64,000 nt of DNA from Bryobacteraceae bacterium (GCA_036557345.1 DATBHS010000098.1:8605-72604), one strand, 5' to 3'. Numbered from the stretch's first letter, positions 2,790 through 52,849 are shown. The notes: generated from the letters alone by a model not told the origin. Made by a program: numbers and translations.

Positions 2790-3803
2790 ATGTTTCAATC
2801 ACGATTCGTTCTACCGGTGCTGCTGCTGGTCACAGCGGCCCAGATGCAAGCCGCTGGCGTCACATATGAAGGTAAGCACGGTCCTGGGCATGGCAAATAT
2901 GTCGTGCTGATCGCGGGCGACGACGCCGAATATCATTCCGAGGAAGCGCTGCCGCAGCTCGCCAAGATTCTTGCCGTCCATCACGGATTCAAATGTACGG
3001 TCCTGTTTCCAATCAACCCGGCCGACGGTACGATCGACCCGAAATATAACCGCAACACGCCCGGTCTCGAGGCGCTACGCAAAGCGGACCTCATGGTGCT
3101 GTTCATGCGGTGGCGCGATCTACCCGACGACCAGATGAAGGAGATAATCGATTACGCGCAATCGGGCCGGCCGATTATCGCTATTCGCACCGGCACGCAT
3201 CCATTCGAGGTGAAGACCAGCAAGACCTACGAAAAATACAACTGGAACAGCAAGATTCCGGGATGGGAAGGCGGCTTCGGCCGCAAGGTGGTAGGCGAAA
3301 CATGGGTCGCCCATCACGGCCAGCACGGAAAACAAAGCACTCGCGCGTTCTATGCACCCGGCGCGGCGCGGAATCCCATTCTGCGCGGCATAGGGACCGG
3401 CGAGATCTGGGTTCCTACAGAAGTGTATGAAGTTACCTTGCCCATGCTTCCCACGTGTCGGCCTTTGTTGCTGGGACAGGTGCTTTCCGGCTTGCATCGG
3501 GACGATCCGCCAGTTGCTGGCAAGGTGAACGATCCGATGATGCCCGTCGCATGGACGAACCGTTTCAAGGCCGAGTCCGGCAACACGGCCCGTGTTTTCA
3601 CGTCCACCATGGGCGCAGCCGACGACCTGGAGAGCGAGGGCCTGCGGCGCCTTCTGGTGAACGCAACCTACTGGGCTGTAGGCCTCGAGAACAAGATTCC
3701 GGCAAAAGCCGATGTCGATCTGGTGGGCGACTATCATCCGCACTCGTATACATCAGAGATGTATACGAAAGGCGTCAAGCCGTCCGATCTGGCGCTGAGG
3801 TAG
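2790..3803 (+). CDS. Secreted ThuA-like / class I glutamine amidotransferase-like domain protein
   Basis: 337 aa. N-terminal signal peptide MFQSRFVLPVLLLVTAAQMQA. Core KYVVLIAGDDAEYHSEEALPQLAKILAVHHGFKCTVLF...ADLMVLFMRWRDLPDDQM resembles ThuA-domain proteins. Family call is from memory of the motif pattern. Confidence 0.6.
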   Translation: MFQSRFVLPVLLLVTAAQMQAAGVTYEGKHGPGHGKYVVLIAGDDAEYHSEEALPQLAKILAVHHGFKCTVLFPINPADGTIDPKYNRNTPGLEALRKADLMVLFMRWRDLPDDQMKEIIDYAQSGRPIIAIRTGTHPFEVKTSKTYEKYNWNSKIPGWEGGFGRKVVGETWVAHHGQHGKQSTRAFYAPGAARNPILRGIGTGEIWVPTEVYEVTLPMLPTCRPLLLGQVLSGLHRDDPPVAGKVNDPMMPVAWTNRFKAESGNTARVFTSTMGAADDLESEGLRRLLVNATYWAVGLENKIPAKADVDLVGDYHPHSYTSEMYTKGVKPSDLALR

Positions 3804-3844: not shown

Positions 3845-4465
3845 CTACAGCGCGAGCGGCTCGCCCCAATGCCCGCCGAACGCAAGCTCATGTAGCGGTC
3901 TGCGGACGCGTTTGGCCACTTCCGCCTGCCTCTGCTGCTCGTTGGTGAGCTTGTCCGGGGTATCGAGATAGCCGAGCGCAACGGCAGCGCCGAGATCGTA
4001 ATCGTCTGGGATCCCGAGAACCTCGCGCGCCCGCGCGCGATCAAAGCCCGCCATGCCATGGGCGTACAGGCCCAGCGCGTGCGCCTGCAACATGAAGTGC
4101 GCAAGAGCAGCCCCGGTATCGTGCAGCGCGTAGGAATTCGGCGAGCCGTTATGGCTGAAGGTCCGTTTGGCAGCCATGATCATGAGGACCGGTGCGGTCT
4201 TCGCCCATTCCTGATTGCGCGGCACCAGTAGACTGAGCATCCGGTCATACACCTCGCCATCGGATTTTCTGGCGATCAAGAAGCGCCACGGCTGCTCATT
4301 GAAGGAGGAAGCCGCCCAGCGTGCGGCTTCAAGGATGGTTCTCAGGTCTTCGTTGGAAATCGGCCTTTCCGAAAACGATCGCGGGCTCCAACGCGTACGA
4401 ATCAACTCGTGAACCGTGGGAAGAGTATCTGCGTGTTTGGCGGGGTTATTTGACAGCAGTGTCAA
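3845..4465 (-). CDS. Nitroreductase family protein
   Basis: TVHELIRTRWSPRSFSERPISNEDLRTILEAARWAASSFNEQPWRF is a classic nitroreductase N-terminus. The ORF is open to 4510, but that would overlap the upstream kinase by 65 nt. The in-frame TTG at 4465 is a more plausible start, though uncertain. Confidence 0.75.
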   Translation of the reverse strand: MTLLSNNPAKHADTLPTVHELIRTRWSPRSFSERPISNEDLRTILEAARWAASSFNEQPWRFLIARKSDGEVYDRMLSLLVPRNQEWAKTAPVLMIMAAKRTFSHNGSPNSYALHDTGAALAHFMLQAHALGLYAHGMAGFDRARAREVLGIPDDYDLGAAVALGYLDTPDKLTNEQQRQAEVAKRVRRPLHELAFGGHWGEPLAL

Positions 4466-5615
4466 CGGGAACGCCTTCCTCGTCCGCGGCAGGGGGCAGA
4501 GCGGCTTCAAGCTCGGCAGTTTCTGGGGCGTAGTAATAATCGTGGTAGTAGTTGTACTTGCTATAGAGCTCGCTCCGGCGCGCTCCGTTCACGACCACAC
4601 CCAACACGTTATTTTCACAAAGCGACTGCATGGCGCGGGTCACCGAATCGAAGGTCGTGGTCCCGATCCGCACAACCAGTATGGTGCCATCGCACATGGT
4701 GGCGAGAAGGTTGCCGTCGGCTGCAAATAGCAGGGGCGGGCTATCGAGAATGACCCAGTCGAAATGGTTACGCAAGCCCTCGATCAACGCGCCGCACTCT
4801 TTGAGGTTTAGGAGTTCGAGAGGATTCGTAACCACCTCTCCGGCGGTAATCGTGTAAAGGTTGGTGTCGCCCACCTTGATAATGATCTCGCCCACGCGAG
4901 CTTTTCCTTGGAGGTAGTCGGTGATACCTGGCGAAGCGGGCAGGCGAAAGATTTTATCGACCGTCGGACGCCTGAAATCGAAGTCGGCAAGCAGAACTCG
5001 CTTCCCGGTAAGCTGTGACTGGGTGATGGCCAGATTCGATGCCGTAAACGACTTCCCCTCGGCCGGGGAAGCGCTGGTCACAACGAGCGTTCGAAGAGGC
5101 TGCAAAGTCTGCAGATGGTTCAGACGCGTGCGTAGCGAGCGAAACTCCTCAGAGGGCGCCTCACGAGGCTTGGATGGATTGACGACCAAGGCTTCGGGAA
5201 TGGGATCGTAGGGCGCTTGCCGGGCGTTCTGGATGAACTGTTCCAGCGTCTCGAGATCGTTTCCTGCTTCGGCCAGCCATGTGTGGGCCGCCGCAAGAAC
5301 CGCCGAAGCCGGACCGGCCGGGGGAGGCGGAGCAGTTGGCGGCTGAACAGCTACGAGTTCATCCGCAGCATCGGAAGGCGCGGCGGGAGCGAAGACGGCT
5401 GCGGGCGTAAACGAGGCCTCGGGTGCAGATGTAAAGGAAGCTGCTGCGGGTGCTGGCGCCGCCTCGGGAGAAGGCGCAGCCGCCTCGACGTTGGCAGCGA
5501 AAACAGGATTACGCTGAATCGGCGGCCGCGGGGGCCGGATCTGTTCTTGCGCCGCTTTTCGCGATGCGTCTTTCTCTTGTGCCGCTTTTCGCAAAGCGTC
5601 GTGGACACGACTCAT
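4446..5615 (-). CDS. Bacterial tyrosine (BY) kinase-type P-loop ATPase (CpsD/CapB/EpsG-like), polysaccharide biosynthesis
   Basis: 389 aa. C-terminal domain has Walker A VVTSASPAEGKSFTASNLAITQ, then LLADFDFRRP and VILDSPPLL. The first approx 115 aa are an Ala/Pro-rich low-complexity stretch. Confidence 0.8.
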   Translation of the reverse strand: MSRVHDALRKAAQEKDASRKAAQEQIRPPRPPIQRNPVFAANVEAAAPSPEAAPAPAAASFTSAPEASFTPAAVFAPAAPSDAADELVAVQPPTAPPPPAGPASAVLAAAHTWLAEAGNDLETLEQFIQNARQAPYDPIPEALVVNPSKPREAPSEEFRSLRTRLNHLQTLQPLRTLVVTSASPAEGKSFTASNLAITQSQLTGKRVLLADFDFRRPTVDKIFRLPASPGITDYLQGKARVGEIIIKVGDTNLYTITAGEVVTNPLELLNLKECGALIEGLRNHFDWVILDSPPLLFAADGNLLATMCDGTILVVRIGTTTFDSVTRAMQSLCENNVLGVVVNGARRSELYSKYNYYHDYYYAPETAELEAALPPAADEEGVPVDTAVK

Positions 5616-5625
5616 TCGTTATGCC

Positions 5626-7269
5626 TTAGCTCCAATAATGATGCGCGACGGATCCTGCCGCGATAGCTAGCCCGAGAAACGTCGCTGCAGCCCAACTGAC
5701 CCACATCATCTGCTTACGGCGTTGCACGACAACGTCATTTTCTAGCAGTGGAATGCTTCCAAGGATCGATAACTGGGTGTACAGACGCGCATCCTTCAAG
5801 TTCTTCAATGACGTGTCCTTGACTTCCCGCATACCGACCAGAACCACGCCGAGAGCGAGGCCCACGCCTCCGCCGATCGGAATAATCATGGATCGCTTGG
5901 GGGCAGAGGGCGCCGGTGGCAGAGATGCGGAATCAATTAGCTCCAGCGTCTCGCCTTGCTTGCGCCGTTCGAGCTCCAGCGAGACGCCCGACTTCTCACG
6001 CTTGATCTGATAGTTGATGTATCGCTGCTTAGCGAGATCACGCTCGCGCAGCAGGTCATTGTAGTCTTTCTCGCTGGCGGGCATACTCTGAAGGCGGGTG
6101 GAGTAAGCGTTCAACGTGGCATTCAGCTTGGCTAGCTGATCGTTGTATCTCTTGCGTTCCATTTCGTTCGCCTTCAATTGCGTCTCAATTTGCTGGACGG
6201 CGGCTTCGGCGTTCATACGTTCGCGGGTCTGGCCTGGATTATAGGTGGGCGGCTCTTTGGAGGGATTGTCCTTTGCCGCTTGTTCCTTAGCCGCCTGCTC
6301 CTTGGCGGTCCTCTCACGCTGGGTTTTCAAAAAAGCCAGACGGTCCCGGGCAGCCTGCAGATTGGGATAGTCATCCGTGTACCGGGTCTTCATGCTTTCG
6401 ATGTTGTCTTGCAGTTGCTCGATTTCCTTATCCAGCGCAGCAACTTTCTGATTTTGGCTGAGCGCCTGCGGCGAGTTCATCTGGTAGGTCGACAGGCGAT
6501 CTTTGGCGATGCCGAGTTCGGACTCCAGCATCATGCGCTGCTCGCTGTTGCGGGTCAGGGCATCGGAAAAACTGCCGGCGCGATTCTCGAGCGCATTCAT
6601 CTGCGCAAGGTTCGTTTGCATCTCATCCGGCAGGCGGCCAGCATTCTTTTCGCGATAGGCAGCCAGCTTCTGTTCCACTTCGTCCAGGTCGCGCTTGGCC
6701 CGCTCGCCTTCATCGGTCAAGAAATCGCTGGTGGCCTGCTGAAACTGCCTGTTCAGCTCGCTGTTTGCCGTCATGAAGCGTGATACTAGCTCGTTGCATA
6801 CTTTCTGAGCCGTGTACTTATCGCTGTAGGCAAAAGTCACCTCCATGGCGGGCAGCGATTTGCCTGCGAGATTGGTCCAGCCGTTAAGAGGCTTGATTCC
6901 GATGGCAGCTTTCATCTTTGTGATGACGTCTTCCATGGGCGCGCCCTTCAGTTCATCCTTGTAGAGCCCGTAGGTGTTAATGATCGACGTTAATGTGTCG
7001 CGGCTTTGAATGTTCTGCGCCATGCCGTTGATCCGGTCGACAATATCCTGGGCGCTTACGTTCTGAATCAGTTCAGGGGAAATTTGCTGCGGTACGATGC
7101 GGATCCTGGCCTGCGAGACGTACTTATCGCTCAGCACAAATGCAACGACGGTGGAAACGACGAGCCCGGCGAACACGGGCCCGATAAGCCAGCCCACATT
7201 CCGGCGCACCATATCGATGTAATCTTCGAAATCCAGTGCGCGCCTGGGTACGGATAGTCGATCAAGCAT
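5626..7269 (-). CDS. Polysaccharide chain-length determinant (Wzz/GumC/EpsF-like PCP) protein
   Basis: 547 aa. N-terminal TM helix (WLIGPVFAGLVVSTVVAFVL), a long coiled-coil periplasmic region, and a C-terminal TM helix. Sits between the Wza-like gene and the BY kinase. Confidence 0.8.
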   Translation of the reverse strand: MLDRLSVPRRALDFEDYIDMVRRNVGWLIGPVFAGLVVSTVVAFVLSDKYVSQARIRIVPQQISPELIQNVSAQDIVDRINGMAQNIQSRDTLTSIINTYGLYKDELKGAPMEDVITKMKAAIGIKPLNGWTNLAGKSLPAMEVTFAYSDKYTAQKVCNELVSRFMTANSELNRQFQQATSDFLTDEGERAKRDLDEVEQKLAAYREKNAGRLPDEMQTNLAQMNALENRAGSFSDALTRNSEQRMMLESELGIAKDRLSTYQMNSPQALSQNQKVAALDKEIEQLQDNIESMKTRYTDDYPNLQAARDRLAFLKTQRERTAKEQAAKEQAAKDNPSKEPPTYNPGQTRERMNAEAAVQQIETQLKANEMERKRYNDQLAKLNATLNAYSTRLQSMPASEKDYNDLLRERDLAKQRYINYQIKREKSGVSLELERRKQGETLELIDSASLPPAPSAPKRSMIIPIGGGVGLALGVVLVGMREVKDTSLKNLKDARLYTQLSILGSIPLLENDVVVQRRKQMMWVSWAAATFLGLAIAAGSVAHHYWS

Positions 7270-7295
7270 GGCAGTCTAATTCCTGTGCAACACTC

Positions 7296-7991
7296 TTATG
7301 GAACGACGACGTGGTCGCCCGGTTTCAGTTCTATGTTCTGATCCATATGCTTGCCGCGTACCACATCTTTATAGTTGAAGGGAATGCGCTTGTCTCCGCG
7401 CAAAATATAGATTTTTTTCTGGTTGCCAAATTCCATAACGCCCCCGGCTTTGCTGATTGCCTCGAGCACGGTAATCGGCACAACCAACGGATATTCACCA
7501 CGGCGGGCGATGTACCCATCCATGTAATATTTCTTGCTTCCTACTGCTTGAACCGTAACTGTTACCAGCGGCTTCACCACGTATTTCCCGAGCGCCTTCG
7601 TGACCGTCTGCTCCACCTGTACAGGAGTGTTTCCGCCGGCTTGCAAATCGCCAACCAGCGGGAGGGTGATCTTGCCGTCTTGGTGAACGGCCACCGGTCC
7701 GGAAAATTCCGGCTCGTTCCACACGCGAATGTGCAGAATATCAGCCGGACCGATCTTGTAAGCATTTGAATCTACAGGGGCTCCAGCCGTCGAGGGCGCC
7801 GGAACGTTCTTTCCGTCATTCGACTGATCAACCGGCGCCTGCTCGGTATTTGACTGGGGAGTTTCCTCCTGCGCCGGGGGAACAGCCGGCGGGGCGACCG
7901 GAGTCTGCTGAGCGGCCGCGCTAAAACAGACGCTAAACAGCGTCCAAAAGGCTAAGATGGCGGAACGATGTCCGGAAGTGAATGAAATCAT
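7296..7991 (-). CDS. Polysaccharide export protein (Wza/EpsE-like)
   Basis: YKIGPADILHIRVWNEPEFSGPVAVHQDGKITLPLVGDLQAGGNTPVQVEQ is the Poly_export/SLBB signature. ATG at 7991 gives a signal peptide. The ORF is open to 8054. Confidence 0.8.
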   Translation of the reverse strand: MISFTSGHRSAILAFWTLFSVCFSAAAQQTPVAPPAVPPAQEETPQSNTEQAPVDQSNDGKNVPAPSTAGAPVDSNAYKIGPADILHIRVWNEPEFSGPVAVHQDGKITLPLVGDLQAGGNTPVQVEQTVTKALGKYVVKPLVTVTVQAVGSKKYYMDGYIARRGEYPLVVPITVLEAISKAGGVMEFGNQKKIYILRGDKRIPFNYKDVVRGKHMDQNIELKPGDHVVVP

Positions 7992-8072
7992 GAGAGAGTA
8001 GAACACTGCCGGGAGGGGCCGGACAACCATGATTCTCGCATGTTGCTGCTCCAATAGAGAAATGAGGCGCGT

Positions 8073-10121
8073 TTATCGAATCTCGGTGTGCCGGTCCAGG
8101 CTGGCCGCCGAAGCCGACGCCGTGGCCGCATCGAATTTCGAAATAGGCACCCATACTTCCATAGGTGTGGGCTCCCGGTTTCCGATCGCATAATACGGTA
8201 TAAATGTCAGATTTACAGGCCTTTTCGCTTGATTCAATACCACTGATAAAGGCTCGTATAAAGGCTCCTCCCCAAGTGGTTTTTCGGCAGCTTGACCGGA
8301 AACCTTTAGAACCGTAATTCCTCCGAGTAAATCCTTGCGAATTTCAGGTGTAATTAAAGTACTAGTACGATAAAAAATATCAGGAAGTGCGGCGCCGCTC
8401 TGGTCAATTTGTTCAAGAGCATACACAAGCGGTCCCCGCAGTAGTGCAATACGGCCATACTCGTCCGCAACGCGAGGATTCGCCACCGTGACCACAGGCT
8501 GCATCGGAAAATTCACCATGACCGTATCGCCCGGCTTCCAGTTTCGCGAGATCGGAACGTATAGCCCGCGCTGGCTTGCCGTCAGGGTCACGGGCTGGCC
8601 GTTGACCTGGACATCCGCCAAGCTCGCCCACGCTGGCCAACGAATGTATAGTGTGAAATCGGAAGCGCGCGTGGGCGTTACCGTGAACGTGATTTCCCCG
8701 CTCCAGGGATACGATGTCGTTTGCGCCAGCTTCAATGGCGTGCCGTCTTCCAGATGCCAGTCGAGCTCGGAAGTATGGTAAAGGTTCACGTACACTCCCG
8801 CGCGGCTGGTGGCGTAGAAGTATCCAGGCAGAGATTCGAACAGGCGCTCCAGGTTCGGGGGGCAGCAGGTCGTGTCATACCACGGGTTCCGCAGCCTCTC
8901 GCCGGATGAGGCCAAGGGATTGCGATAGCAATACAGAGTTCCGGAGAGCGACATTCCCGAATTCGCGCCGTTGTAAAGCGCTCGTTCGAGCACGTCGGCA
9001 TAGCGTCCATCGCCGGTAAGCGCTAGCAGCCGGAAGTTCCACATCACGTTGGCAACCGCTGCGCACGTCTCGGCGTACGCTTGTTCCGCAGGAAGTTCGT
9101 AAGGGTCGCCGAAGGTTTCGCCGGCTGATCGCGATCCCACGCCGCCCGTGATGTACATCTTGCGCATCGTGAGATCGGTCCACAATAAGTCAAGAGTTCG
9201 TTTATAGGCCTGGTCGCCCGCTTCCGTGAAATAATCGGTGGCGCCGGAGGCGGCATACAGCGCGCGGACGGCATGACCCTCGAACTCGGTGCGCGAAGTA
9301 AAAGGTTTACCGCTAAAGGCATAGCGAATATCCGAATCCTTCAGCTTTAAGCGGTCCTTCTCGACTCCGCTGAAAAGATAGCGGGCAAATTCCAGATACT
9401 TCGTCTGACCGGTAGTGCGATACAACTCCACCAGCGCCATTTCGAGCTCAGGATGGCCGGTCACGAAAGGCCGCTTGGCAGGTCCGAAATTATCGATCAC
9501 ATAATCGGCGAACCGAATACCGGCATCGAGCAGCTTGCGGCTTCCGGTGGCTCGGTAATAGGCGATGCCCGCCTGGATGAGATGCCCGAGGCAATAATCC
9601 TCGTGAGAATGGAGTAGATCGGTGAAGCGCAAGCGCGCTTTATCGCCCACAAAGTAAGTGTTGAGATAGCCGCTCGGCTCCTGCGCGGCGATGATGTGGG
9701 AAGCGAGCGACTCGACGTCCCCGCGCAACTTCTGCTTCTCGGCCTCTGATGTCTCGTTCGAAGCAAGAGCCCAGGACGCCGCTTCTATCCATTTATAGAG
9801 GTCGGAATCGGTGTAGAGAGGGCCCTTGCGCGGCAGATCGGGACGTCCCGACAAGCGCCGGAAATTGTCCACAACGCCGTGCTCTTCGAGCAGATCAAGC
9901 AGCGTTGGCAGACTTCGCTCGGTAGTGATTCTGCGGCGAGCGCTCCAGAATCCATCGCCCAGGCGTACCGCCTGTACTGGAACCGGGTGCAAGCGGGCGT
10001 TCAACGAGTGATCGAGATAGAGAATGCCCTCGTCCTTCCACTCGTCGCCGTGCGGTGTTTGCGCACCCAGAACCAGGATCGCGCCACTCGCGGCGGCAGC
10101 GGCAAACAGCCATTGCTTCAT
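8073..10121 (-). CDS. Glycoside hydrolase family 127 (beta-L-arabinofuranosidase-like, DUF1680)
   Basis: About 680 aa. Motifs HSHEDYCLGHLIQAGIAYYRATG and TCCPPNLERL. ATG at 10121 gives the signal peptide MKQWLFAAAAASGAILVLGA and overlaps the Maf stop by 4 nt (ATGA). Confidence 0.85.
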   Translation of the reverse strand: MKQWLFAAAAASGAILVLGAQTPHGDEWKDEGILYLDHSLNARLHPVPVQAVRLGDGFWSARRRITTERSLPTLLDLLEEHGVVDNFRRLSGRPDLPRKGPLYTDSDLYKWIEAASWALASNETSEAEKQKLRGDVESLASHIIAAQEPSGYLNTYFVGDKARLRFTDLLHSHEDYCLGHLIQAGIAYYRATGSRKLLDAGIRFADYVIDNFGPAKRPFVTGHPELEMALVELYRTTGQTKYLEFARYLFSGVEKDRLKLKDSDIRYAFSGKPFTSRTEFEGHAVRALYAASGATDYFTEAGDQAYKRTLDLLWTDLTMRKMYITGGVGSRSAGETFGDPYELPAEQAYAETCAAVANVMWNFRLLALTGDGRYADVLERALYNGANSGMSLSGTLYCYRNPLASSGERLRNPWYDTTCCPPNLERLFESLPGYFYATSRAGVYVNLYHTSELDWHLEDGTPLKLAQTTSYPWSGEITFTVTPTRASDFTLYIRWPAWASLADVQVNGQPVTLTASQRGLYVPISRNWKPGDTVMVNFPMQPVVTVANPRVADEYGRIALLRGPLVYALEQIDQSGAALPDIFYRTSTLITPEIRKDLLGGITVLKVSGQAAEKPLGEEPLYEPLSVVLNQAKRPVNLTFIPYYAIGNREPTPMEVWVPISKFDAATASASAASLDRHTEIR

Positions 10122-14734: not shown

Positions 14735-15937
14735 TTAGGGCTTCGCCGTGGCCAGCTTACAGAGGGCGCGCCATTTTTTCGAGAGGTACCGGTTCCAATA
14801 CATCAGCACTCCGGTAATCGCGAGCAGGGGCAGCAGCGTTCCTAAGACCGCCCACAGTATCTTGACGGTCATACCCCAAGCGGTGCCGAAATGCAGCGGC
14901 GCGAGCAGCCAGACGAACCAGTCACCGACGGTCTCGTTCTTTCCGACGCGCCAGAGCCCGATGATGTTGCCACTTGCCGGATCGAGGTAAACCCAGGTCG
15001 TGTGGAGAAATTCCGTTACATCAGTACGGGCGAGCATTACGGCAAAAGGCTGGTTTCGGGAAGCGTAATTGATGCCCTGCAGCTTTGCGCCGGGTTCGGC
15101 TGCCATCGCATTGGCCACGAGCGTGGTAACTGGCAAGCGTGCGGCATAGGAGCGCTCGGAAAGGTGAAAAGTGGGCGGCGCAGCATTCGGCGATTTGCTG
15201 ATGGCATTGACCGCCGCGACAAAAGGCTCCGGCCAGACAAAGTAAATGCCGGAGATAGCCCAGATCGACATAAGGCCGAGCGTCCAGAAGCCGATCGCGC
15301 TGTGCAGATCGAAGTTGATGCGCTTCCAGCGCCGGCGGAAATCGACAATCAGCGCGTGCTTCCAGGTCTTCACGCCCGGCCACCAGATAACCACGCCCGT
15401 GATACACAAGAGCAACAAACAAGCCGCGCCGATGCCGTTTACGATGAATCCAACTGTCCCGCCGAGCAGCCGGAAATGAAGGTCGGCGACCCAATTGAGC
15501 CATCCCTGGTCGAGCGCCTGCTCTCCTACAAGATGCTCGTCGACCTCCGAGGCGAAAGCATACCGATACTTGCCTGCTTGTGAGAGGAGCGCGGCATACT
15601 TGCTGCCGCGAACACCGGGCGAGTAAATCGCTTCCAGCCTCCACTTAGGATACGTGCGCTCGACGACACGCGAGATACGCTCGAAAGCGGCGCCCGTAAC
15701 CGGTTCTGCGACGCCGGTTTGCGGCTGCATCAGCGCGGGATCACTCCAGCGGCCAAGCTCGTCCTCAAAGACGAGGACCGAGCCGGAAAATCCGATCACG
15801 AGAGCGTATAGGCAGAGCAGTACTCCGGCCCAGAGATGGATCTGAAACATCGCGCGGCGCAGCCAGACGCGGCGGGGATGTCTCCAGAACCCCCTATGTA
15901 CATGTACGACCGGCTGTTGTGCTTCTACTTCTACCAT
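14735..15937 (-). CDS. PepSY-associated TM helix protein (PiuB-like iron-regulated membrane protein)
   Basis: 400 aa. Repeated TM segments with the pattern HLWAGVLLCLYALVIGFSGSVLVF ... LHFG. Overlaps the 3-prime end of the upstream TonB-dependent receptor by 7 nt. Confidence 0.8.
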   Translation of the reverse strand: MVEVEAQQPVVHVHRGFWRHPRRVWLRRAMFQIHLWAGVLLCLYALVIGFSGSVLVFEDELGRWSDPALMQPQTGVAEPVTGAAFERISRVVERTYPKWRLEAIYSPGVRGSKYAALLSQAGKYRYAFASEVDEHLVGEQALDQGWLNWVADLHFRLLGGTVGFIVNGIGAACLLLLCITGVVIWWPGVKTWKHALIVDFRRRWKRINFDLHSAIGFWTLGLMSIWAISGIYFVWPEPFVAAVNAISKSPNAAPPTFHLSERSYAARLPVTTLVANAMAAEPGAKLQGINYASRNQPFAVMLARTDVTEFLHTTWVYLDPASGNIIGLWRVGKNETVGDWFVWLLAPLHFGTAWGMTVKILWAVLGTLLPLLAITGVLMYWNRYLSKKWRALCKLATAKP

Positions 15938-42397: not shown

Positions 42398-42955
42398 ATG
42401 CGGCTGGTCGTTGGGATCACCGGAGCCTCGGGTGCCATCTTTGGCGTGCGCACGCTCGAGGCGCTGCGGGAACTTGCCGTGGAAACGCATTTGATCCTAA
42501 GTAAGTGGTCCCGTTCCACACTGGTGCACGAGACGCACTACACAGTCGAACAAGTAGAGAAGCTTGCGTCGTCCGTTCATCGCCCCGACAACCAGGCAGC
42601 CATTCTTTCGAGCGGCTCTTTCAAAACGGACGGCATGATCGTCGCGCCCTGCAGCATGAAAACGCTCGCTGCCATTCGCGCAGGCTACGGGGAGACCTTA
42701 ATGTGCCGCGCCGCGGATGTAATCCTCAAAGAGCGGCGCAAATTAGTCCTCCTGGCCCGCGAGAGTCCGTTCAGCGAGATTCACCTGGAAAACATGCTCG
42801 CCCTCACGCGCATGGGCGCCGTAATCTTCCCGCCAGTCCCCGCCTTCTATAATCGGCCGCAGAACATCGAGGATCTCGTAAATCACATCGTCGGCCGGTT
42901 GCTCGACCAGTTCGGATTGGAAATGCCCGGCCTGAAGCGCTGGACCGGCTTCTAG
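42398..42955 (+). CDS. ubiX: Flavin prenyltransferase
   Basis: 185 aa. MRLVVGITGASGAIFGVR...VAPCSMKTLAAIRAGYGETL. Confidence 0.9.
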   Translation: MRLVVGITGASGAIFGVRTLEALRELAVETHLILSKWSRSTLVHETHYTVEQVEKLASSVHRPDNQAAILSSGSFKTDGMIVAPCSMKTLAAIRAGYGETLMCRAADVILKERRKLVLLARESPFSEIHLENMLALTRMGAVIFPPVPAFYNRPQNIEDLVNHIVGRLLDQFGLEMPGLKRWTGF

Positions 42956-42974
42956 CCTGTTAGGGTTGGTCTTA

Positions 42975-45648: not shown

Positions 45649-45744
45649 TATACCCGGGCCAGCAGGCGTCTCTGTGCTAGCCTGTTAGCGTTCTCGCTGA
45701 ACACGCTAAGCCCGCGGGTGTGCGGGTCGCTACGACCTTTCGCC

Positions 45745-47217
45745 ATGTCGCTGCAAGTTTTTTTGCAAGCTCAACTGCTTGGTACCGAGGATTTCCTGAT
45801 CTTTCAAACTTCTGGGCTCCAGGAGCAGGCGAAAGAGCTATATGGCCGCTGTGCTTGGCTCACATTGTTCTGTGAAGTACTCCCCCGCGCTCTTTTGGCA
45901 GAACTGAAGCTCTCTCGAATGCTTCTCGGCTCCAGCAGCGCCGAGCAGTTTCTCCTGGTCCTCGCCGAAGAGGAGATCCCGCACGCAAATGCCTTTCTCG
46001 AGCGCGCGGCGAAATCGATTGCGGACCTTTCGCATGGGACATTGCGTTTGGTCTGGGCGAGCACGGAAAACCTGGGCGCCTGGCCGGTCGCCCGAAAACG
46101 GTTGGATGACGCCCTGGATGCCCGAATTTCGACGCCTCTGGCCTCGGGCACTGAGCCTGCGGTTGCGTTTTTGCCGTTTCTCGCGTCCTCTCCGCCTGAC
46201 AGAGATTCTTATTTTGGGGAGTTCGCCGAGAGGTTGGTGTCTGCCCAACGCGTCGGCTGGTCAAGCGATCAGCCCGCGCGCCTGGCCTGGGACGAGGGGC
46301 AGTACACATGGGCGCTGAAGGAGCAGTCCGGTTTCGATGATGACGGCATCTTGTTTCCGCGTTGCCTGGCGCTGGACGAGTCCGGCAAGCACTTCGCTCT
46401 GCCCGAAGATCTGGCGCAGCGAGCGGACGGTGCTCCGAAGTGGGGTATTTTGCGCGGTGACGTGGATCACTTCGATCTGCAGTTGCGCAGGGCGGCGACG
46501 ATCGAGGATCATCTGCACCTTTCAGTCGCCTTTAAGGACTTCTTCGCGGGCGAACTATCGCTCCTTTTCGCCCGGCTTCCTGATCTCTGGCGTAAAGTTA
46601 GTATCCTCTACCGGGGAGGGGACGGTTTCACGGTAGTGGGGGCTTGGGACGGGCTCATCGTTCTCGCCCGCGAGTTGCAGCGGCTGTTCGACAAGTTTAT
46701 AGAGCACAATTTCGAATCGCTGCCCGGCGTGGAGGCGAAGACTTTGAGTGTGGCCCTCTCGATCGCTACCGAGCCAGATATACCGTCCGCGGCGGTGCTG
46801 CAGGAAGCGAGCGCGCTCCTGCGTGCGGCTAAGTCCAGCGAACTCGGCTCCTTTCATCTTTTCGGACGCGCACTGGAATGGAAACGCCTGGATGACGCCG
46901 AGGAGCTCAAAGACAGTCTGATGCGGCTGGTTGCCAGGTTTGGTTATCGTGCCGACTACATACACGATCTGGCCTCGGTATATCGCGAAGCGTTTTCGAC
47001 ACGCCACGGCCGGCGGGGTAAGGCGTTTCGGGTTGATAAACCGTGGCGAACACACATGCGTGTCTCCCGAGTGATTCCGCAGGCACGCAGCAAGGAATCG
47101 AGTAATCTACGGGATGCCGTCATTACGAACCTGGTCGGGAAGCGGACTGCTGGCATGAAGCTGCGCCCGTCGGCGCGGGTAGGTTTGGAGTGGGCGCGCT
47201 TGGCAGCGGGAAGCTGA
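45745..47217 (+). CDS. cas10: Minimal Cas10-like large subunit (Csm1-like; no HD domain, no Zn finger, GGDG motif)
   Basis: About 490 aa. It starts directly with the post-HD Cas10 signature (GTEDFLIF..LYGRCAWL, compare GIQdFIf..LRGRSfyL). Palm motifs are GILRGDVDHFD and ILYRGGDGFTVVGAWD, then SVALSIATEPD...LLRAAK. It is first in a csm2-csm5 operon. Confidence 0.75.
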   Translation: MSLQVFLQAQLLGTEDFLIFQTSGLQEQAKELYGRCAWLTLFCEVLPRALLAELKLSRMLLGSSSAEQFLLVLAEEEIPHANAFLERAAKSIADLSHGTLRLVWASTENLGAWPVARKRLDDALDARISTPLASGTEPAVAFLPFLASSPPDRDSYFGEFAERLVSAQRVGWSSDQPARLAWDEGQYTWALKEQSGFDDDGILFPRCLALDESGKHFALPEDLAQRADGAPKWGILRGDVDHFDLQLRRAATIEDHLHLSVAFKDFFAGELSLLFARLPDLWRKVSILYRGGDGFTVVGAWDGLIVLARELQRLFDKFIEHNFESLPGVEAKTLSVALSIATEPDIPSAAVLQEASALLRAAKSSELGSFHLFGRALEWKRLDDAEELKDSLMRLVARFGYRADYIHDLASVYREAFSTRHGRRGKAFRVDKPWRTHMRVSRVIPQARSKESSNLRDAVITNLVGKRTAGMKLRPSARVGLEWARLAAGS

Positions 47218-47278
47218 CGGCTGATATCTGACAGGTGATTGCTGAAGTCTGATTGCTCATTCGCTGAAAGGAACTTGC

Positions 47279-47809
47279 ATGGCTGAAGTAGAGGAAAAAA
47301 AGACGGAAGAACGCCGCAGTGACAGCCGGCCTCCTCGCGAGAATCGCGGCCCCGGAGGAAAGCCGAACGAGAGAGGGGAGCGTGGTTCGGGTGATCGCGG
47401 GTCCGACCGCGGCCGTGAGCGGGGCGGTCCGGGCGCAGGCCGGCCTGGCGAGCGCCGCGGCGAAGGACCGCCGGAAATCGACCTCGATAAGTTGGTCAGC
47501 GATAGTCTTTACCTGGACAACCAGGCACACGTCGTAGTCAGCCGGATGCGCGACATGGATTCGGGTACGAAGAGCCAGTTACGGCGGCTTTATAATGCCG
47601 TGCGCCGCGCAACGCGAGCTCCAGAAAATGAGCGGCAGCACGAGTTCGTCATGGTACGGGCGCGCCTTGCATACACAATCGCGCGCCATTCTCTGCGCAG
47701 CCTGGATGCACTCGAGCGATTGCTGCTGCAGGTTACCCGGAAGAATGATACCCGCGGATACGAGCGCTTCCGCGATTTATTTGAAGCAATTATTGCTTAC
47801 AACGAATAG
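47279..47809 (+). CDS. csm2: Cas11/Csm2-like small subunit with Arg/Gly-rich N-terminal extension
   Basis: 176 aa. The C-terminal approx 110 aa are helical with KSQLRRLYNAVRRA...RARLAYTIARH. Its position between cas10 and csm3 is the basis for the call. The first approx 66 aa are low complexity. Confidence 0.65.
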   Translation: MAEVEEKKTEERRSDSRPPRENRGPGGKPNERGERGSGDRGSDRGRERGGPGAGRPGERRGEGPPEIDLDKLVSDSLYLDNQAHVVVSRMRDMDSGTKSQLRRLYNAVRRATRAPENERQHEFVMVRARLAYTIARHSLRSLDALERLLLQVTRKNDTRGYERFRDLFEAIIAYNE

Positions 47810-47820
47810 GACATTGAAGC

Positions 47821-48654
47821 ATGAGTTCTCATACTCAAGAAACCGAGCTTACCTTTCTCGGCAAGCTGGTGCTCGAAGGCGAAATCCAATGCCAGACCGG
47901 TTTGCACATCGGCGCGGGTAAGGGCTCACTCGAAATCGGCGGCGCAGACAATCCGGTCGTAAAGGATGCCTTCGGGATTCCCTATATTCCGGGCAGTTCC
48001 TTGCGCGGCCGGCTTCGCTCGCTGCTCGAGCAGGCGCTCGGTCTTGCAGTTCCGAGTGAGTTGGTCTATCTTTCGAAGCGCAAGGGCCAAGAAGTTCGCA
48101 TTCACCAGAGCGATCGCCCCGATGACGAGGTCTGCATTCTCTTCGGGCGTAATCCCGGACGTGTGGAAAAGGTGAACGGCGATGCCATTGAAGCTCCGAC
48201 CGCAACACCCGCGCGTCTGACCGTGTATGATGCGCCTCTTCTTGTTGATAGCATCACAACCCAGATGCGCGAAAATCTGGACGACGAATTGACCGAGGTC
48301 AAGAGTGAAAATGCGGTCGATCGCATCACCTCGCAAGCGAATCCTCGAACCCTCGAGCGTGTGCCAGCCAGCGCACGCTTCCGGTTTCGCATGGTGCTCG
48401 ATGTGCTCTGTGCGGAAGACAAGCCGCTTCTCGCGCGCGTCGCAGAAGGTTTACGCCTGCTCGAAGATGATGCCCTCGGCGGTGGCGGCAGCCGCGGCAG
48501 CGGCCGTGTGAGTTTCACGGGCTTGACGCTCACTTGGCGCAGCAAGGATTATTACGCGAAAGGCACCCCCGAAAGCAACCTGCTCTCGGATGCCGGACTT
48601 CAGGCCTTACAGCAGCTTGCCAGTTCCGACGACTTCGCAGAGAAACTTGCCTAA
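47821..48654 (+). CDS. csm3: Type III RAMP protein Csm3 (Cas7)
   Basis: 277 aa. QTGLHIGAGKGSLEIGGADNPVVKDAFGIPYIPGSSLRGRLRSLLEQ and the G-rich loop LGGGGSRGSGRV. Confidence 0.9.
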   Translation: MSSHTQETELTFLGKLVLEGEIQCQTGLHIGAGKGSLEIGGADNPVVKDAFGIPYIPGSSLRGRLRSLLEQALGLAVPSELVYLSKRKGQEVRIHQSDRPDDEVCILFGRNPGRVEKVNGDAIEAPTATPARLTVYDAPLLVDSITTQMRENLDDELTEVKSENAVDRITSQANPRTLERVPASARFRFRMVLDVLCAEDKPLLARVAEGLRLLEDDALGGGGSRGSGRVSFTGLTLTWRSKDYYAKGTPESNLLSDAGLQALQQLASSDDFAEKLA

Positions 48655-49830
48655 ATGCAGCAGGCGCTTTTGATTCGACTCCGGCCTGCCGGTCCGTGGC
48701 GCTACGGTCCCGGGGATGGAGGCCAGGATCGTGTCGACACGCTGTACCGCAGTGATCGGCTCTACTCAGCGGTTACTGTGGCTATGCGCGACTTAGGCTT
48801 TTTGCAGGACTGGCTCAGCGCGACGGCTAAAGCGCCGCCGTCCATCGCATTCAGTTCCTTATTCCCATTTCAAGGCGACTCTTTATTTGCGATTCCGCCC
48901 GCCACTGCGTGGCCGCCTTTGCCCACGCTGGTGAGCACACCAAGCCCTGTGTTTTTAAGCAAGATCCGCTGGAAAGCTGCGCAGTTCGTTCCCGTCGCGC
49001 TGATTGACTCTTTGCTAACGGGACACTCCATTCTCGCAGATCAATGGCTTCCCGATCCCGAGAGCGGATGCTTGTTGCGGCGTGATCGCCCGAGCTCGAG
49101 CCCTTTCCGCATTACTACGCGGCGGGCTGCTGCCGTCGACCGCCTGGCCCAGAATTCGTTTGAGATCCGCTCGACCGCCTGTGTCGAGTTTGAAGCGGCG
49201 TCCGGCCTGTGGAGTGTTGTGCGTTTTTCCGATGAGTCGACTGAATCCGAGTGGACTGGCCGGATCCAGGCAGCTTTTCGCCTCCTCTCGGATACCGGGT
49301 TCGGCGGCCGGCGCACAAGCGGGTGGGGGCAGACGCAGCCGCCGGAGTTCCAACGGGCGCCATGGCCCGGTCTGCTATTCCCGAAGGTAGCCCAAAGTCT
49401 TGCGCAGCGGAACGGATTCGCGAACGGCAATCATGCCGGCTCGCAGTTTTGGCTGCTATCTCTGTACTCGCCCGCAACAAATGACGAGGTCGATTGGGCG
49501 AGCGGAGATTACCAGTTGACCCTGCGCGCAGGTGGAAACACGAAGCTGTTGCAAATGGTAGCGGAGGGCTCCGTCATGGCAGCCCGTTCGGAACCGGTGG
49601 GCACGATTATGGATATCGCGGCAGACGGGTTTTCTCATCCCGTTTATCGATCGGGAATCGCACTCGCGTTGGAACTGCCTGCTATCGAGCAACAGGGCTT
49701 GGAAGAACCGGTTGAACAGCCTTCGACCGAAGAGGCGGTCGACGCGCAGCCCTGCGAAGAGCCGCCATCATCGAGAACGGAAAGTCCGGGAACGGGAATT
49801 CCATCAGAGGAGCCAGTCGATGATTTTTAA
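48655..49830 (+). CDS. csm4: Type III RAMP protein Csm4 (Cas5)
   Basis: 391 aa. Motifs YRSDRLYSAVTVAM, SSLFPF and DTGFGGRRTSGWG. Starts at the nucleotide after the csm3 stop. Confidence 0.8.
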   Translation: MQQALLIRLRPAGPWRYGPGDGGQDRVDTLYRSDRLYSAVTVAMRDLGFLQDWLSATAKAPPSIAFSSLFPFQGDSLFAIPPATAWPPLPTLVSTPSPVFLSKIRWKAAQFVPVALIDSLLTGHSILADQWLPDPESGCLLRRDRPSSSPFRITTRRAAAVDRLAQNSFEIRSTACVEFEAASGLWSVVRFSDESTESEWTGRIQAAFRLLSDTGFGGRRTSGWGQTQPPEFQRAPWPGLLFPKVAQSLAQRNGFANGNHAGSQFWLLSLYSPATNDEVDWASGDYQLTLRAGGNTKLLQMVAEGSVMAARSEPVGTIMDIAADGFSHPVYRSGIALALELPAIEQQGLEEPVEQPSTEEAVDAQPCEEPPSSRTESPGTGIPSEEPVDDF

Positions 49831-50962
49831 ACTGACTGCGCTCACTCCGCTCCTGGTCGGCGATGGGCGTGAACTCGCACCTATCGATTACATGGTTTGG
49901 AAGGACCAGGTGAATGTCCTCGATCAGGCGCGCATCTTTAAGCTGCTGGCGCGGGGTCCGCGGCTGGACGGGTACCTGGCACAGCTACGCAAGGCCACAA
50001 AACTCGATTTCGCTTCTTGGGGCGGCTTTGCCCAAAACTTCTCGCAGCGGCGCATTCCCTTCGAGGATCCCAGCTCAACCGCAATTTGGAACGCAGCGCC
50101 TTCGGAGTCGCTCTTCATTCAGACTTTCGCGGCTAACCTGAACGGACCGTACCTGCCCGCTTCGGCTCTCAAGGGAGCGCTTCGCAGCGGGCTCATTTTC
50201 ACGCGCTGGTCCGCGGCCACGCTGGAGCGTGCGGCCTCTTCAATGGACGGCGAGCGCGTTGCCAGACGCATCGCCGAAACAGCCGAGGCGAATGCGGGTG
50301 CATCGCAGATGAAGATCGTGAGTATTGCGGACGGCCAGCCGGCGCCCGGCTCATCGTTCAAGGTCTATCTCACACGTGTGGCATCGCTCGATACACGGCA
50401 ACCTGGAAAACCGCAACTGACCTGGAAGGTGGCTGGACGCGGGAGCGTTCTTCCGCAGCGGGTCTCCGACGCAACGCCTATATTTGTGGAAATGGCAGCC
50501 CCCGGTACGACGTTTAGCGGTTCCTGGGAGGAACGGAGCTTCTTTGAAAATCAGGAGCTGTCACGCGCTCTTGGATGGCGCTCTATCCCCGAGCCGCGCA
50601 TGGTAACCGATGCTGCGAATCAATATGCGTCGGCTCAACTGAATGTGCATTCGCAGTTCGCCGATGCTTCCGGACTTGCCAGCCTTCAGAACGGCATTCA
50701 GAGATTGAAAAACGAACTGGACGCGGCACAGTCATCGCCGCTCACCTGCCTTTTGTCGCTCGGTTGGGGAGGTGGGTTCGTTTCGAAAAGCGCCTTCCTC
50801 GACACCAACCTGGACTCCTATCGTAAGCTTCTACGTTCGGTCCCCGCCTTAGGCAGGAGCATCAGGGAAAATGTACCATTTCCCAAAACCCGCCGCGTCA
50901 TTTTCACAGGCGGCCAACCCACCGCCCTTCCGGGGTGGGTCAAGGTCGAGCTTCAAAAGTAG
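49820..50962 (+). CDS. csm5: Type III RAMP protein Csm5 (Cas7 family)
   Basis: ATG at 49820 (MIFKLTALTPLLVGDG) overlaps the csm4 stop by 11 nt. Motifs PYLPASALKGALRS, LSLGWGGGF and FPKTRR. Confidence 0.85.
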   Translation: MIFKLTALTPLLVGDGRELAPIDYMVWKDQVNVLDQARIFKLLARGPRLDGYLAQLRKATKLDFASWGGFAQNFSQRRIPFEDPSSTAIWNAAPSESLFIQTFAANLNGPYLPASALKGALRSGLIFTRWSAATLERAASSMDGERVARRIAETAEANAGASQMKIVSIADGQPAPGSSFKVYLTRVASLDTRQPGKPQLTWKVAGRGSVLPQRVSDATPIFVEMAAPGTTFSGSWEERSFFENQELSRALGWRSIPEPRMVTDAANQYASAQLNVHSQFADASGLASLQNGIQRLKNELDAAQSSPLTCLLSLGWGGGFVSKSAFLDTNLDSYRKLLRSVPALGRSIRENVPFPKTRRVIFTGGQPTALPGWVKVELQK

Positions 50963-51120
50963 CCGTCCTGTAGGTACTATTTTCGGCATTTTCTTGGGTG
51001 AAGTGTAAGGGTTGGCAGTGGAATTGCCGATATTTCAGTATGATGGGAGAGTGCCGGTATCCGCAGGCCCATACGGCTGCTGATCGCCCGTCGTCCTCCG
51101 ATCTGGAGTAGACCTTAACA

Positions 51121-52026
51121 ATGCAGAGCGCGATCTACAATGCGTACTTTGGGTTTTCGGAAAACCCCTTTAATATCAGTCCCGATCCGGGATTTCTGTA
51201 TCGTAGCCCACAGCACGAAGAAGCTCTGGCCAATCTGATCTACGGTGTCCGTGGCCGCAAGGGATTCATCGTACTCAGCGGTGAAGTGGGTACCGGTAAG
51301 ACGACGATGTTGGAGTGTCTGCGGGACTATCTCGATAACCAGCGCATCGAATTTGCCTTCCTTTTCAATTCCCGGCTTACTCCCGAGCAGTTCTTCGACA
51401 TGGTCGCTTATGATTTCGATCTGCAGTGCGATCGAAAATCGAAGACGGACGTCCTGTTCGCTCTGAACGCCCTGCTTCTCCGGCAGGCGGAACGGGGCCG
51501 CACGTCCGTGCTGATTGTGGATGAGGCGCATAACCTCGACTGGGACGTCCTGGAGGAGATTCGTCTCCTCGGCAACTTGGAGAACCGCCAAGGCAAGCTC
51601 CTGCAAATTATTCTCGCCGGGCAGCCGGAACTCGACCGCAAGCTGGACGCACCGAACCTCCGGCAATTGAAGCAGCGGATTGTGCTCCGATGCACGCTGA
51701 ACCCGCTCACGCCGGAAGAGTGCGCGGCGTATGTCGAAAGCCGGCTTGCGCACGCCGGAATGACAAGACAAACGGTGTTTCCGCCGGAAGTGCTCGAGGA
51801 AGTGGCAACCCGCGCGCGGGGCATTCCCCGGCTGATCAATCTGCTCTGCGATAACCTTCTGGTCACCACCTTTGCGATGGAGCAGCGCACCGCAACTCTC
51901 GACATGCTCGATGAAGTGTGCCACGATCTCCGGCTTGAATGGCCCGGCAGCCATCGGGGCCGCGGTCGCCATCGTTACAGCGTGGATGACGAGCTTCCGA
52001 AGACTCCCTACGCTGTCGGGGACTAA
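51121..52026 (+). CDS. ExeA/AAA_22-type AAA+ ATPase (resembles PEP-CTERM-locus secretion ATPase family)
   Basis: 301 aa. FGFSENPFNISPDPGFLYRSPQHEEAL...FIVLSGEVGTGKTTML (Walker A), LIVDEAHNL (Walker B) and ILAGQPEL. Confidence 0.85.
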   Translation: MQSAIYNAYFGFSENPFNISPDPGFLYRSPQHEEALANLIYGVRGRKGFIVLSGEVGTGKTTMLECLRDYLDNQRIEFAFLFNSRLTPEQFFDMVAYDFDLQCDRKSKTDVLFALNALLLRQAERGRTSVLIVDEAHNLDWDVLEEIRLLGNLENRQGKLLQIILAGQPELDRKLDAPNLRQLKQRIVLRCTLNPLTPEECAAYVESRLAHAGMTRQTVFPPEVLEEVATRARGIPRLINLLCDNLLVTTFAMEQRTATLDMLDEVCHDLRLEWPGSHRGRGRHRYSVDDELPKTPYAVGD

Positions 52027-52040
52027 CATTCTCTTAGGGC

Positions 52041-52065
52041 GAGCGTAGCTAAACCGCTAACGCTC
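52041..52065 (+). terminator. Hairpin 15 nt after the ATPase stop
   Basis: GAGCGTAGC-TAAACC-GCT(A)ACGCTC is 9 bp with one bulge, followed by GAAGAATTTCG. The U-tract is weak. Confidence 0.35.
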
Positions 52066-52591
52066 GAAGAATTTCGCGCGCTATAGCGGCAAGAAGCCGT
52101 ATTTCGAGGTTTGACCGGATGATGCAAGTGCTCCAGAAATGCCGCCACTACTCGCGCATTGATTGAGAAGATATTTGTTCTGGATCCAGACGGAAAACAG
52201 GGATAGGAATAGAATTCCGGCTGTCTTCAGCTCACCGCCCTCAAGCTGACGAATGGGGAAGTGATCAGTCTGATTGAGGTGTGGCGGGAGCTTGCTGAGC
52301 CTGATTGCCAAAGGTCCATTCTCAGCGCACTGCTTAGTGGTATATAGAACAGGTCTTGAATCTGAGAAACCGGTCGGGGCTTCAGCAGCGCTAGCGAGAG
52401 CAGGATTCGAGCTTTCTGCGGATTCAGCTCATCGGCAGGGATTTTTCAGCGAGCGTGCCAAGGAACGGACCGGTTACTGCCGCGAGCCTCTTCATAGGTT
52501 ATGTCAGCAAACAAGCTGACAATCTCAACTGTGACGACAAACACCAGCACGGAAATGCTTTAGAGCTATTTGTCTTTGCTTGTTCACGTAA

Positions 52592-52849
52592 TGTTCAGCT
52601 CTGTTCATAGTCAGAATTCGTCAACGAAGTGTGATATCCTTCATACCGCTGGCTGTCATGGCTGCCATTGCAACGACCAAAATTGTGATGCTGCCAAACG
52701 TCGGGTTTTGGGCTGTGGCCCGTGACGCCCGCACGGATTATTTCACGCTGATGGGGCTACTGTTCGTGTTGGCGTCTGGCGCGAGGCCGCTTTCGTTCGA
52801 TTCCATCATCAACTGCACCCTGAGCACGAGCCATACACGTGGAAGATAA
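52592..52849 (+). pseudogene. C-terminal fragment of a DoxX-like membrane protein
   Basis: SFIPLAVMAAIATTKIVMLPNVGFWAVARDARTDYFTLMGLLFVLASGARPLSFD resembles only the last two helices of DoxX-family proteins. The frame is closed by TAA at 52589-52591 and no N-terminal half lies upstream. Confidence 0.45.

Follow-up and report, generated by a model that had tools for sequence, protein, structure and literature searches.

Which RNA does a type III CRISPR-Cas effector complex load when no CRISPR array lies beside its genes? The question is raised by a 64-kb stretch of DNA from Bryobacteraceae bacterium, referred to below as the window, in which the genes of a Csm-type module and their gaps occupy positions ~45671-52838. 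A preliminary description of this DNA had found no repeat-spacer structure around the effector genes and had proposed three explanations: the array and cas6 lie elsewhere, the array was lost and a 0.8-kb tract downstream of the module is its former site, or the complex uses a non-canonical RNA. The region is a self-contained cassette of six genes, encoding a truncated Cas10, Csm2-Csm5 and an ExeA-like AAA+ ATPase. At a probability of about one in two, it is read here as an exapted Csm derivative that is independent of any array, its RNA loading included; a variant in which the complex is loaded from its own leader falls within this estimate. The descriptive part of the reading, namely that the lack of an array is ancestral, that the cassette has six genes and that the downstream tract is not a former array, is held with high confidence.

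A Csm cassette without an array

Judged by the sequences of its subunits, the cassette is a derivative of type III-A. As in that type, the genes stand in the order Cas10/Csm1-Csm2-Csm3-Csm4-Csm5 and the aspartate of Csm3 is kept; Csm2, Csm3, Csm4 and Csm5 all exceed the curated NCBIfam cutoffs for type III-A and the PADLOC Csm models concur, so that the type III identification given in the preliminary description is borne out. The differences are substantial. The Cas10 of type III-A measures ~750 amino acids (aa), whereas that of the cassette has ~490 aa, no HD domain, an unrelated N-terminal 200 aa and a degenerate cyclase; the window is also without cas6, csm6/CARF, cas1-cas2 and an array, and has the ExeA-like ATPase in addition. 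When the related loci are taken together with the window, the features of type III-A that fall away are the score of Cas10 against its model cutoff, the HD domain, the GGDD motif, cas6, the array, the adaptation genes and a CARF effector.

The four gaps in question (45649-45744, 47218-47278, 50963-51120 and 52027-52838) are genuinely intergenic according to the open reading frame (ORF) map and the gene calls on the source contig. A window-wide search for direct repeats (length 20 nt or more, no further than 200 nt apart) returned only two two-copy pairs, one at 5545 and one at 42105, both put down to chance, and Tandem Repeats Finder (TRF) at its lowest threshold gave 13 tiny repeats of 2-3 copies, none of which is CRISPR-like. 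A custom scan of the window detected no 8-mer occurring three times at a regular spacing of 35-130 nt and, at offsets of 40-130, two 24-nt windows with at least 19/24 identity, with nothing array-like among them; Rfam produced nothing credible at either gathering or permissive thresholds. The absence of repeat-spacer structure, first noted by eye, therefore holds around the effector genes and elsewhere in the window, as the direct-repeat, TRF, custom and dot-plot scans were all negative. The suggestion that relatives might retain an array at this site found no support, since none of 97 related loci has one in a total of 995 kb. These loci comprise 8 from genomes, 80 from metagenomes and 9 from exact look-ups, three of them being the window's own sequence, and they extend at least 5 kb upstream in 37 cases and at least 5 kb downstream in 21. 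With no array in the gaps, the window or the 97 loci, no local guide source is visible around the module.

The few periodic signals met in relatives are coding low-complexity repeats or head-to-tail minisatellites. The former arise from Csm2, which in many relatives (L006 at 3039-3605, L020, L087) carries a long N-terminal low-complexity extension rich in Arg and Gly (EEKK...RGGENRPPRE...GGGPRGE); the Csm2 of the window has a short version of it. A 27-nt tandem repeat at 15407-15612 of locus L091 was considered as a CRISPR and rejected, as it is head-to-tail, spacerless and confined to this one locus. L091 is deep-branching, and its gap between csm5 and the ATPase gene is expanded to 666 nt, the purine-rich 27-nt repeat being present there in 7.7 copies.

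Genes that would usually accompany an array are likewise missing. Pfam annotation of the window ORFs gave no cas1, cas2, cas6, CARF or SAVED, and the precomputed Pfam gene tables of L089-L094 contain no cas1, cas2, cas6 or CARF. An ancillary effector dependent on cyclic oligoadenylate (cOA), be it Csm6 or another CARF/SAVED protein, had no match in the window or the annotated relatives. The remainder of the 64 kb holds ordinary genes of metabolism, transport and regulation.

The cassette is inherited vertically within Acidobacteriota. Relatives of its Cas10 form more than 2266 clusters at 90%, all of ~490 aa, and those with a named source belong solely to this phylum (Bryobacteraceae, Acidobacteriaceae, Terriglobia). 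The order cas10-csm2-csm3-csm4-csm5 is constant wherever the DNA extends far enough, and the six-gene arrangement including the ATPase is present in members at only 34-43% Cas10 identity. Flanking genes are housekeeping genes that vary from locus to locus: a divergently transcribed SDR gene lies upstream of cas10 in 22 of 61 loci, its pairwise identities co-varying with those of Cas10 (rho 0.68 over 275 pairs, which are non-independent), and AspRS and HisRS occur downstream in two distant members. As relatives at 34-43% Cas10 identity are already array-less, the lack of an array is very probably the ancestral state of the family and not the result of local decay.

One locus has surroundings of a different kind. 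In L094 (GCA_963703035.1) a CAP12/PCTIR TIR-domain gene at 7793-8947 (- strand) lies one gene upstream of cas10, an association seen at this locus only; L094 has no adjacent ATPase, and csm5 is followed by ribosomal protein genes.

Selection on the six genes

Dozens of lineages carry all six ORFs intact, and purifying selection acts on the cassette as strongly as on housekeeping genes. The ratio of non-synonymous to synonymous substitution rates (dN/dS), computed between the window and its six closest relatives with dS saturated, is 0.03-0.12 across the six genes, in comparison to 0.03-0.07 for the neighbouring dapA and atpB; Csm3 lies at 0.03-0.05 and the ATPase at 0.03. From the pattern of motifs, the conserved part is the predicted RNA-binding and RNA-cutting backbone plus the ATPase. 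The catalytic loop of Csm3, LEIGGADNPV, is kept in the window and identical in 65 of 65 relatives; its aspartate is taken to be the residue that cleaves target RNA, following the work on Csm3 D32/D33, and the activity here is a predicted one.

The recognisable parts of Cas10 are the second palm domain and the C-terminal domain only. The Pfam model Cas10-Cmr2_palm2 matches at 1.5e-15, while TIGR02578 reaches 123.7 bits against a cutoff of 170 and covers model positions 492-730 only. Canonical Cas10 chains in the PDB align to query residues ~210-340 only, and in a search of representatives canonical Cas10 proteins of 740-800 aa match residues ~200-485 only, the C-terminal half, at ~1e-13. No HD nuclease domain was matched by Pfam, NCBIfam or PADLOC models or by PDB chains; since the PDB chains and canonical proteins cover the C-terminal half only, Cas10 is predicted to lack it. 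The first 200 residues are family-specific and unrelated in sequence to canonical Cas10. In the window, GGDG stands where the cyclase motif would have GGDD. Among the 84 motifs read in the family, it is GGDD in 58, GGED in 12, GGDG in 9, EGDG in 2, GGDN in 2 and GGND in 1, and distant representatives have GGQD, SNDG, GVAG, GASD or GIEG. This drift suggests that the family does not depend on cOA synthesis.

The ATPase, whose membership of the module the preliminary description had missed, is a sixth and conserved member of the cassette. It is the next gene after csm5 in 28 of the 34 loci that are informative, with at least 1.2 kb beyond csm5, and it is 76-93% identical among loci of the main clade. 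Its Walker motifs are intact, A being GEVGTGKT and B VLIVDEAH. Source databases name the protein 'general secretion pathway protein A' or 'ExeA family protein', and it aligns end to end with TIGR03015, the XrtA/PEP-CTERM-associated ATPase related to ExeA/GspA (positions 1-268 of 269), yet its 286.2 bits fall below the equivalog cutoff of 324.5. Unlike those proteins, it is tied to csm genes and not to an exopolysaccharide or PEP-CTERM locus. A sequence search of the PDB with the ATPase was uninformative. The window does contain a polysaccharide export cluster at 4446-8054 (- strand), with a Wzc-like AAA_31 protein, a Wzz chain-length determinant and a Wza-like Poly_export protein, which lies 43 kb from the ATPase gene.

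The features of the cassette are collected in Table 1. The start of csm5, as called on the source contig, lies inside the end of csm4, giving an 11-nt overlap.

Table 1. Genes and non-coding features of the cassette, with the adjoining downstream tract (positions in the window).
Feature	Position	Strand	Basis
Promoter-like motif and leader of cas10, conserved	45671..45756	+	alignment, covariation
Cas10/Csm1, short, 490 aa	45745..47217	+	Pfam Cas10-Cmr2_palm2; TIGR02578 below cutoff
cas10-csm2 spacer with heptads	47213..47265	+	TRF period 14, 3.2 copies
Csm2 (Cas11, small subunit)	47279..47809	+	Pfam Csm2_III-A and TIGR01870, each above cutoff
Csm3 (Cas7 backbone)	47821..48654	+	TIGR02582, 199 bits (cutoff 90)
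Csm4 (Cas5)	48655..49830	+	TIGR01903, 107.5 bits (cutoff 55); Pfam Csm4_C
Csm5, 380 aa	49820..50962	+	TIGR01899, 64 bits (cutoff 38)
csm5-ATPase gap, 158 nt	50963..51120	+	conserved promoter-like core, 5' untranslated region
ExeA/GspA-like AAA+ ATPase (AAA_22), 301 aa	51121..52026	+	Pfam AAA_22, 2.4e-27
Lineage-specific spacer ahead of padR-efflux operon, outside the module	52027..52838		no repeats above chance

Conserved non-coding elements

The earlier statement that the gaps hold only short hairpins is half right: hairpins exist, but two of the gaps carry strongly conserved non-coding elements, one ahead of cas10 and one ahead of the ATPase gene. We read both as a putative promoter plus a regulatory 5' untranslated region (5'UTR), and not as repeats, the promoters being assigned by consensus only. 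Transcription is predicted to start ~7 nt past TAGCCT (45678-45683) ahead of cas10 and past TATGAT (51039-51044) ahead of the ATPase gene.

The cas10 leader begins with the motif TGTGCTAGCCT, of the form TRTG-n-TAnnnT, which resembles an extended -10 element and is also written TGTGyTAGCCT. Two hairpins come next, the weak P1 and then P2 (GCCCGC/GCGGGT), and after them CGCUACGACC, in which CGAC is able to base-pair with GUCG at the cas10 start codon; no Shine-Dalgarno sequence precedes cas10. The leader is alignable in ~70 loci and 89-92% identical to relatives in which synonymous sites are saturated. Of the 6 bp of P2, 5 show compensatory changes, and the helix is paired in 93% of cases; G-U pairs outnumber A-C pairs 28 to 3, which indicates that it forms on the RNA of the + strand. 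Conservation runs into the coding sequence, where synonymous variation is suppressed in the first 10 cas10 codons (entropy 0.89 vs 1.55). The covariance model R1 finds one match per locus, always at the leader, in 41 of 44 sources over 787 kb searched on both strands, and no Rfam family matches. The leader, with its -10-like motif, covarying hairpin and CGAC-GUCG pairing, is put forward as a candidate new cis-regulatory RNA motif.

Two repeat-like interpretations of the leader were tried and set aside. A second copy was sought with pattern searches and with R1 over the same span, and each locus has a single one. An antisense reading, in which the minus strand gives GCGAGAAC and resembles the type III-A 5' tag, is rejected on the strand bias of the G-U pairs in P2. 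Complementarity of the conserved non-coding elements to the window is limited to chance 9-14-mers. As a separate observation, a 12-mer, TGCTAGCCTGTT, that matches a portion of the cas10 promoter-like motif exactly occurs at 42952-42963 (+ strand), at the end of a flavoprotein gene and just upstream of the ATP synthase genes, which fits a motif that is a general promoter form in this organism.

The gap between csm5 and the ATPase gene measures 113-209 nt in 27 of 28 loci and 690 nt in the remaining one, and it is laid out as a T-rich terminator-like stretch, a promoter-like core and a 5'UTR. The core, at 51022-51046, reads GAAtTGCCGAT-N7-TATGATGG; it is conserved in 26 loci, takes the form GAAnTGCCGAT-N7-13-TATGATGG across clades and can still be made out in the distant L092. 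Within the window's clade, the stretch 51006-51115 keeps 91-95% identity although dS exceeds 1, while the sequence of the 5'UTR differs between clades. The folding energy of this 5'UTR, like that of the cas10 leader, is unremarkable. Within it, the 40 nt at 51060-51099 are invariant in the window's clade, where synonymous sites are saturated, except for a C/T difference at 51089. This segment has approximately the length of a CRISPR RNA (crRNA), yet no tag-like motif was seen in it and no target in the window. A CCUCC...GGAG pairing in the 5'UTR could mask the ribosome-binding site.

Other candidates in the gap did not hold up. A small ORF starting from the ATG in TATGATGG, 9-31 codons long, is present in nearly all loci and is probably not coding, as the peptides are unrelated between clades; in the window's clade every change in it is non-synonymous and the rest is invariant at all codon positions. 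TGGCAG-N5-TTGCC can be read as a sigma-54 element in the window's clade but not in L006-L008, and is thus no feature of the family. A third spacer, between cas10 and csm2, contains 7-8 imperfect heptads nnCTGAn, which place TGA in all three frames, followed by the csm2 ribosome-binding site GAAAGGAA; the heptads are restricted to the window's own clade (L001-L004, L009-L011, L014).

Possible sources of the loaded RNA

In the exapted reading, the five Csm proteins would still assemble a Csm-type ribonucleoprotein on RNA and would cut complementary RNA through the invariant active-site loop of Csm3. Cas10 would serve as a scaffold only, and the ATPase, expressed from its own conserved promoter-like element, may be a functional partner or the output of the complex. 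The loading RNA would not come from a neighbouring CRISPR; crRNAs taken from a distant array are considered less likely than a non-CRISPR RNA, possibly fixed, whose gene lies elsewhere in the genome. The last of the three explanations offered earlier, a non-canonical RNA, is accordingly the likelier direction, and the cassette possibly has no role in defence. This reading is preferred because vertical retention and housekeeping-level constraint across the phylum fit poorly with dependence on patchy CRISPR loci, and because a conserved, dedicated ATPase has no place in canonical type III interference, where to our knowledge no such protein has a role. A more specific form of it, in which a domesticated type III effector has left adaptive immunity, works with its ExeA-like partner and a fixed non-CRISPR RNA or its own leader transcripts, and cleaves endogenous RNA, is offered tentatively.

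Several observations weigh against the exapted reading. No candidate guide RNA was identified in the gaps, window and related loci. Intact GGDD in 58 of the 84 motifs read means that signalling may persist in part of the family, and the structure prediction for Cas10, with a pLDDT of 55, is too poor for a fold search. The 6 of 34 loci without an adjacent ATPase make the linkage strong but not obligatory in cis. Both non-coding elements look like a promoter and 5'UTR present in a single copy per locus, and the hairpins of the leader are absent in the deepest branch, L092, where the -10-like motif lies 17 nt from the ATG. The host genome is visible for 64 kb only. Finally, most III-B, III-C, III-E and III-F loci and all III-G loci are array-less and thought to borrow crRNAs (PMC12669027).

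The last two points also speak for an ordinary type III module that works in trans, with an array and Cas6 elsewhere, for example of a type I system, supplying crRNAs for RNA targeting against phages. The intact catalytic loop of Csm3 and the presence under selection of all five Csm subunits agree with this explanation, which is possible though rather unlikely. Neither an array nor cas6 is within reach in any of the 97 loci, and the window and five other distinct annotated loci encode no CARF effector. The absence of the HD nuclease and the eroding cyclase count against it, as does the dedicated ATPase. Moreover, housekeeping-grade constraint and synteny conserved over class-level divergence contrast with the patchy distribution and fast turnover of CRISPR loci; the cassette behaves as a vertically inherited cluster and not as a defence island.

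A second alternative is that the complex loads transcripts of the cassette itself, binding the cas10 leader or the ATPase 5'UTR and so autoregulating or co-regulating the two units. The leader hairpin is followed by GCUACGAC, which resembles the 3' part of a hairpin-type CRISPR repeat, and CreR and the mini-arrays of types I and V offer a comparison. The proposal draws on the 89-95% identity of both elements at saturated dS, the covarying hairpin on the sense strand, the suppressed synonymous variation at the cas10 start and a UA(C)GACC motif just 5' of the AUG in both start regions. Regulatory crRNA-like RNAs are also established for other CRISPR types, but in type III loci a survey of regulatory elements that resemble repeats came upon no conserved mini-arrays (PMC10120712). 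The extended -10-like start is a textbook one and shares its 12-mer with the region upstream of the atp operon, so that the element may be only a promoter with its 5'UTR. Neither a second copy nor a complementary target in the window turned up, the hairpins are lost in L092, the UTR sequence is not conserved between clades, and folding energies are ordinary. Loading of this kind is thus regarded as doubtful.

The possibility that an array was lost locally, leaving 52027-52838 as its decayed remnant, is very unlikely. The tract is long and of lower G+C (0.515 vs about 0.58), and ~630 nt of it remain without an ORF once a called 63-aa ORF at 52658-52849, ahead of padR, is taken into account; the terminator-like hairpin of the ATPase gene, at ~52040-52068, stands within its first 40 nt. 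In a self dot-plot of the tract, suggested earlier as a way to reveal degenerate repeats, none surfaced: the best 24-nt window has 15 matches, where shuffles average 15.4 and reach 18 at most, and the other gaps are equally unremarkable. The tract is not conserved, with stretches of only 29-152 nt resembling the tracts of close relatives, and in L007 and L008 the next gene begins 1-7 nt past the ATPase gene. As relatives down to 34% Cas10 identity are array-less as well, the idea that this is the former site of the array is abandoned, and the tract is unrelated spacer DNA. Nor does it appear to be a pseudogene, as six-frame translation gives stops in all frames and tblastx a weak match to L002 alone. 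About 150 nt at 52149-52295 (+ strand) are 72% identical to L002 16536-16687 with no intact ORF in either, and may represent either a remnant or some small non-coding element.

That the cassette is the functionless remnant of a defunct CRISPR-Cas locus, as the missing array and adaptation genes, the truncated Cas10 and GGDG in place of GGDD might suggest, is hardly credible given six ORFs intact in dozens of lineages, dN/dS of 0.03-0.12 at saturated dS, an invariant Csm3 loop and conserved regulatory elements.

Among known systems, III-G and III-H also represent reduced forms of type III, in which the cyclase is inactivated and both cOA effectors and the adaptation module are missing. III-G, found only in Sulfolobales and marked by Csx26, is array-less and presumed to take its crRNAs from elsewhere; in III-H Cas11 is fused into Cas10 (PMC12669027). 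In both, HD is apparently active, the catalytic aspartates of Cas7 are lost and DNA cutting is predicted (PMC12669027). The cassette reverses this pattern, as its HD is absent and its Csm3 loop invariant; it also has a separate Csm2/Cas11 gene, and neither III-G nor III-H has an AAA+ ATPase. The gene calls place no extra subunit gene inside the operon, no model search for Csx26 having been made. On these sequence features, the cassette is judged to be neither III-G nor III-H.

The closest analogues in logic appear to be two other derived gene sets. A derivative of type I-E with a STAND NTPase is widespread in one lineage, Streptomyces, without a nuclease, adaptation module or array (PMC8730458). 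Like the cassette, it is a derived class 1 gene set stably linked to a P-loop NTPase; it differs in its origin from I-E, its retained cas6 and its large STAND protein, where the cassette comes from III-A and has a 300-aa ExeA-like AAA+ protein. HRAMP of Haloarchaea (PMC6702361, cited in PMC8730458) has homologues of Cas5 and Cas7 nearest to type III and is array-less and confined to one lineage. The HRAMP proteins are nearly unrecognisable and linked to nucleases, while the cassette still has a remnant of Cas10 and its Csm proteins clearly resemble those of type III-A.

Type III loci without an array are frequent, and crRNA borrowing is the usual explanation for them. What is distinctive here is a discrete family confined to Acidobacteriota, with thousands of variants, chromosomal and under housekeeping-level constraint, in which both effector activities of Cas10 appear to be lost while the RNA-cutting backbone is kept, and whose tie to an ATPase has no CRISPR-Cas precedent in the literature searched. 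That literature yielded no published link of ExeA-like ATPases to Cas10 and no account of the acidobacterial family; no such acidobacterial type III module is described in PMC12669027, PMC10120712 and PMC10910872, all three searched for 'Acidobacteri', or in PMC8730458, searched for type III derivatives that lack an array. The family would escape discovery pipelines that take arrays as their anchor, and that of PMC10910872 does not mention it.

If the cassette does work without an array, it would be the type III counterpart of the Streptomyces I-E/STAND module and of HRAMP, and a natural example of a Csm complex loaded with non-CRISPR RNA. This bears on how effector complexes choose their RNA and on the roles of CRISPR machinery beyond defence. 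Should the domesticated form of the reading be true, the cassette would be an RNA-guided housekeeping or regulatory machine spread across a major soil phylum.

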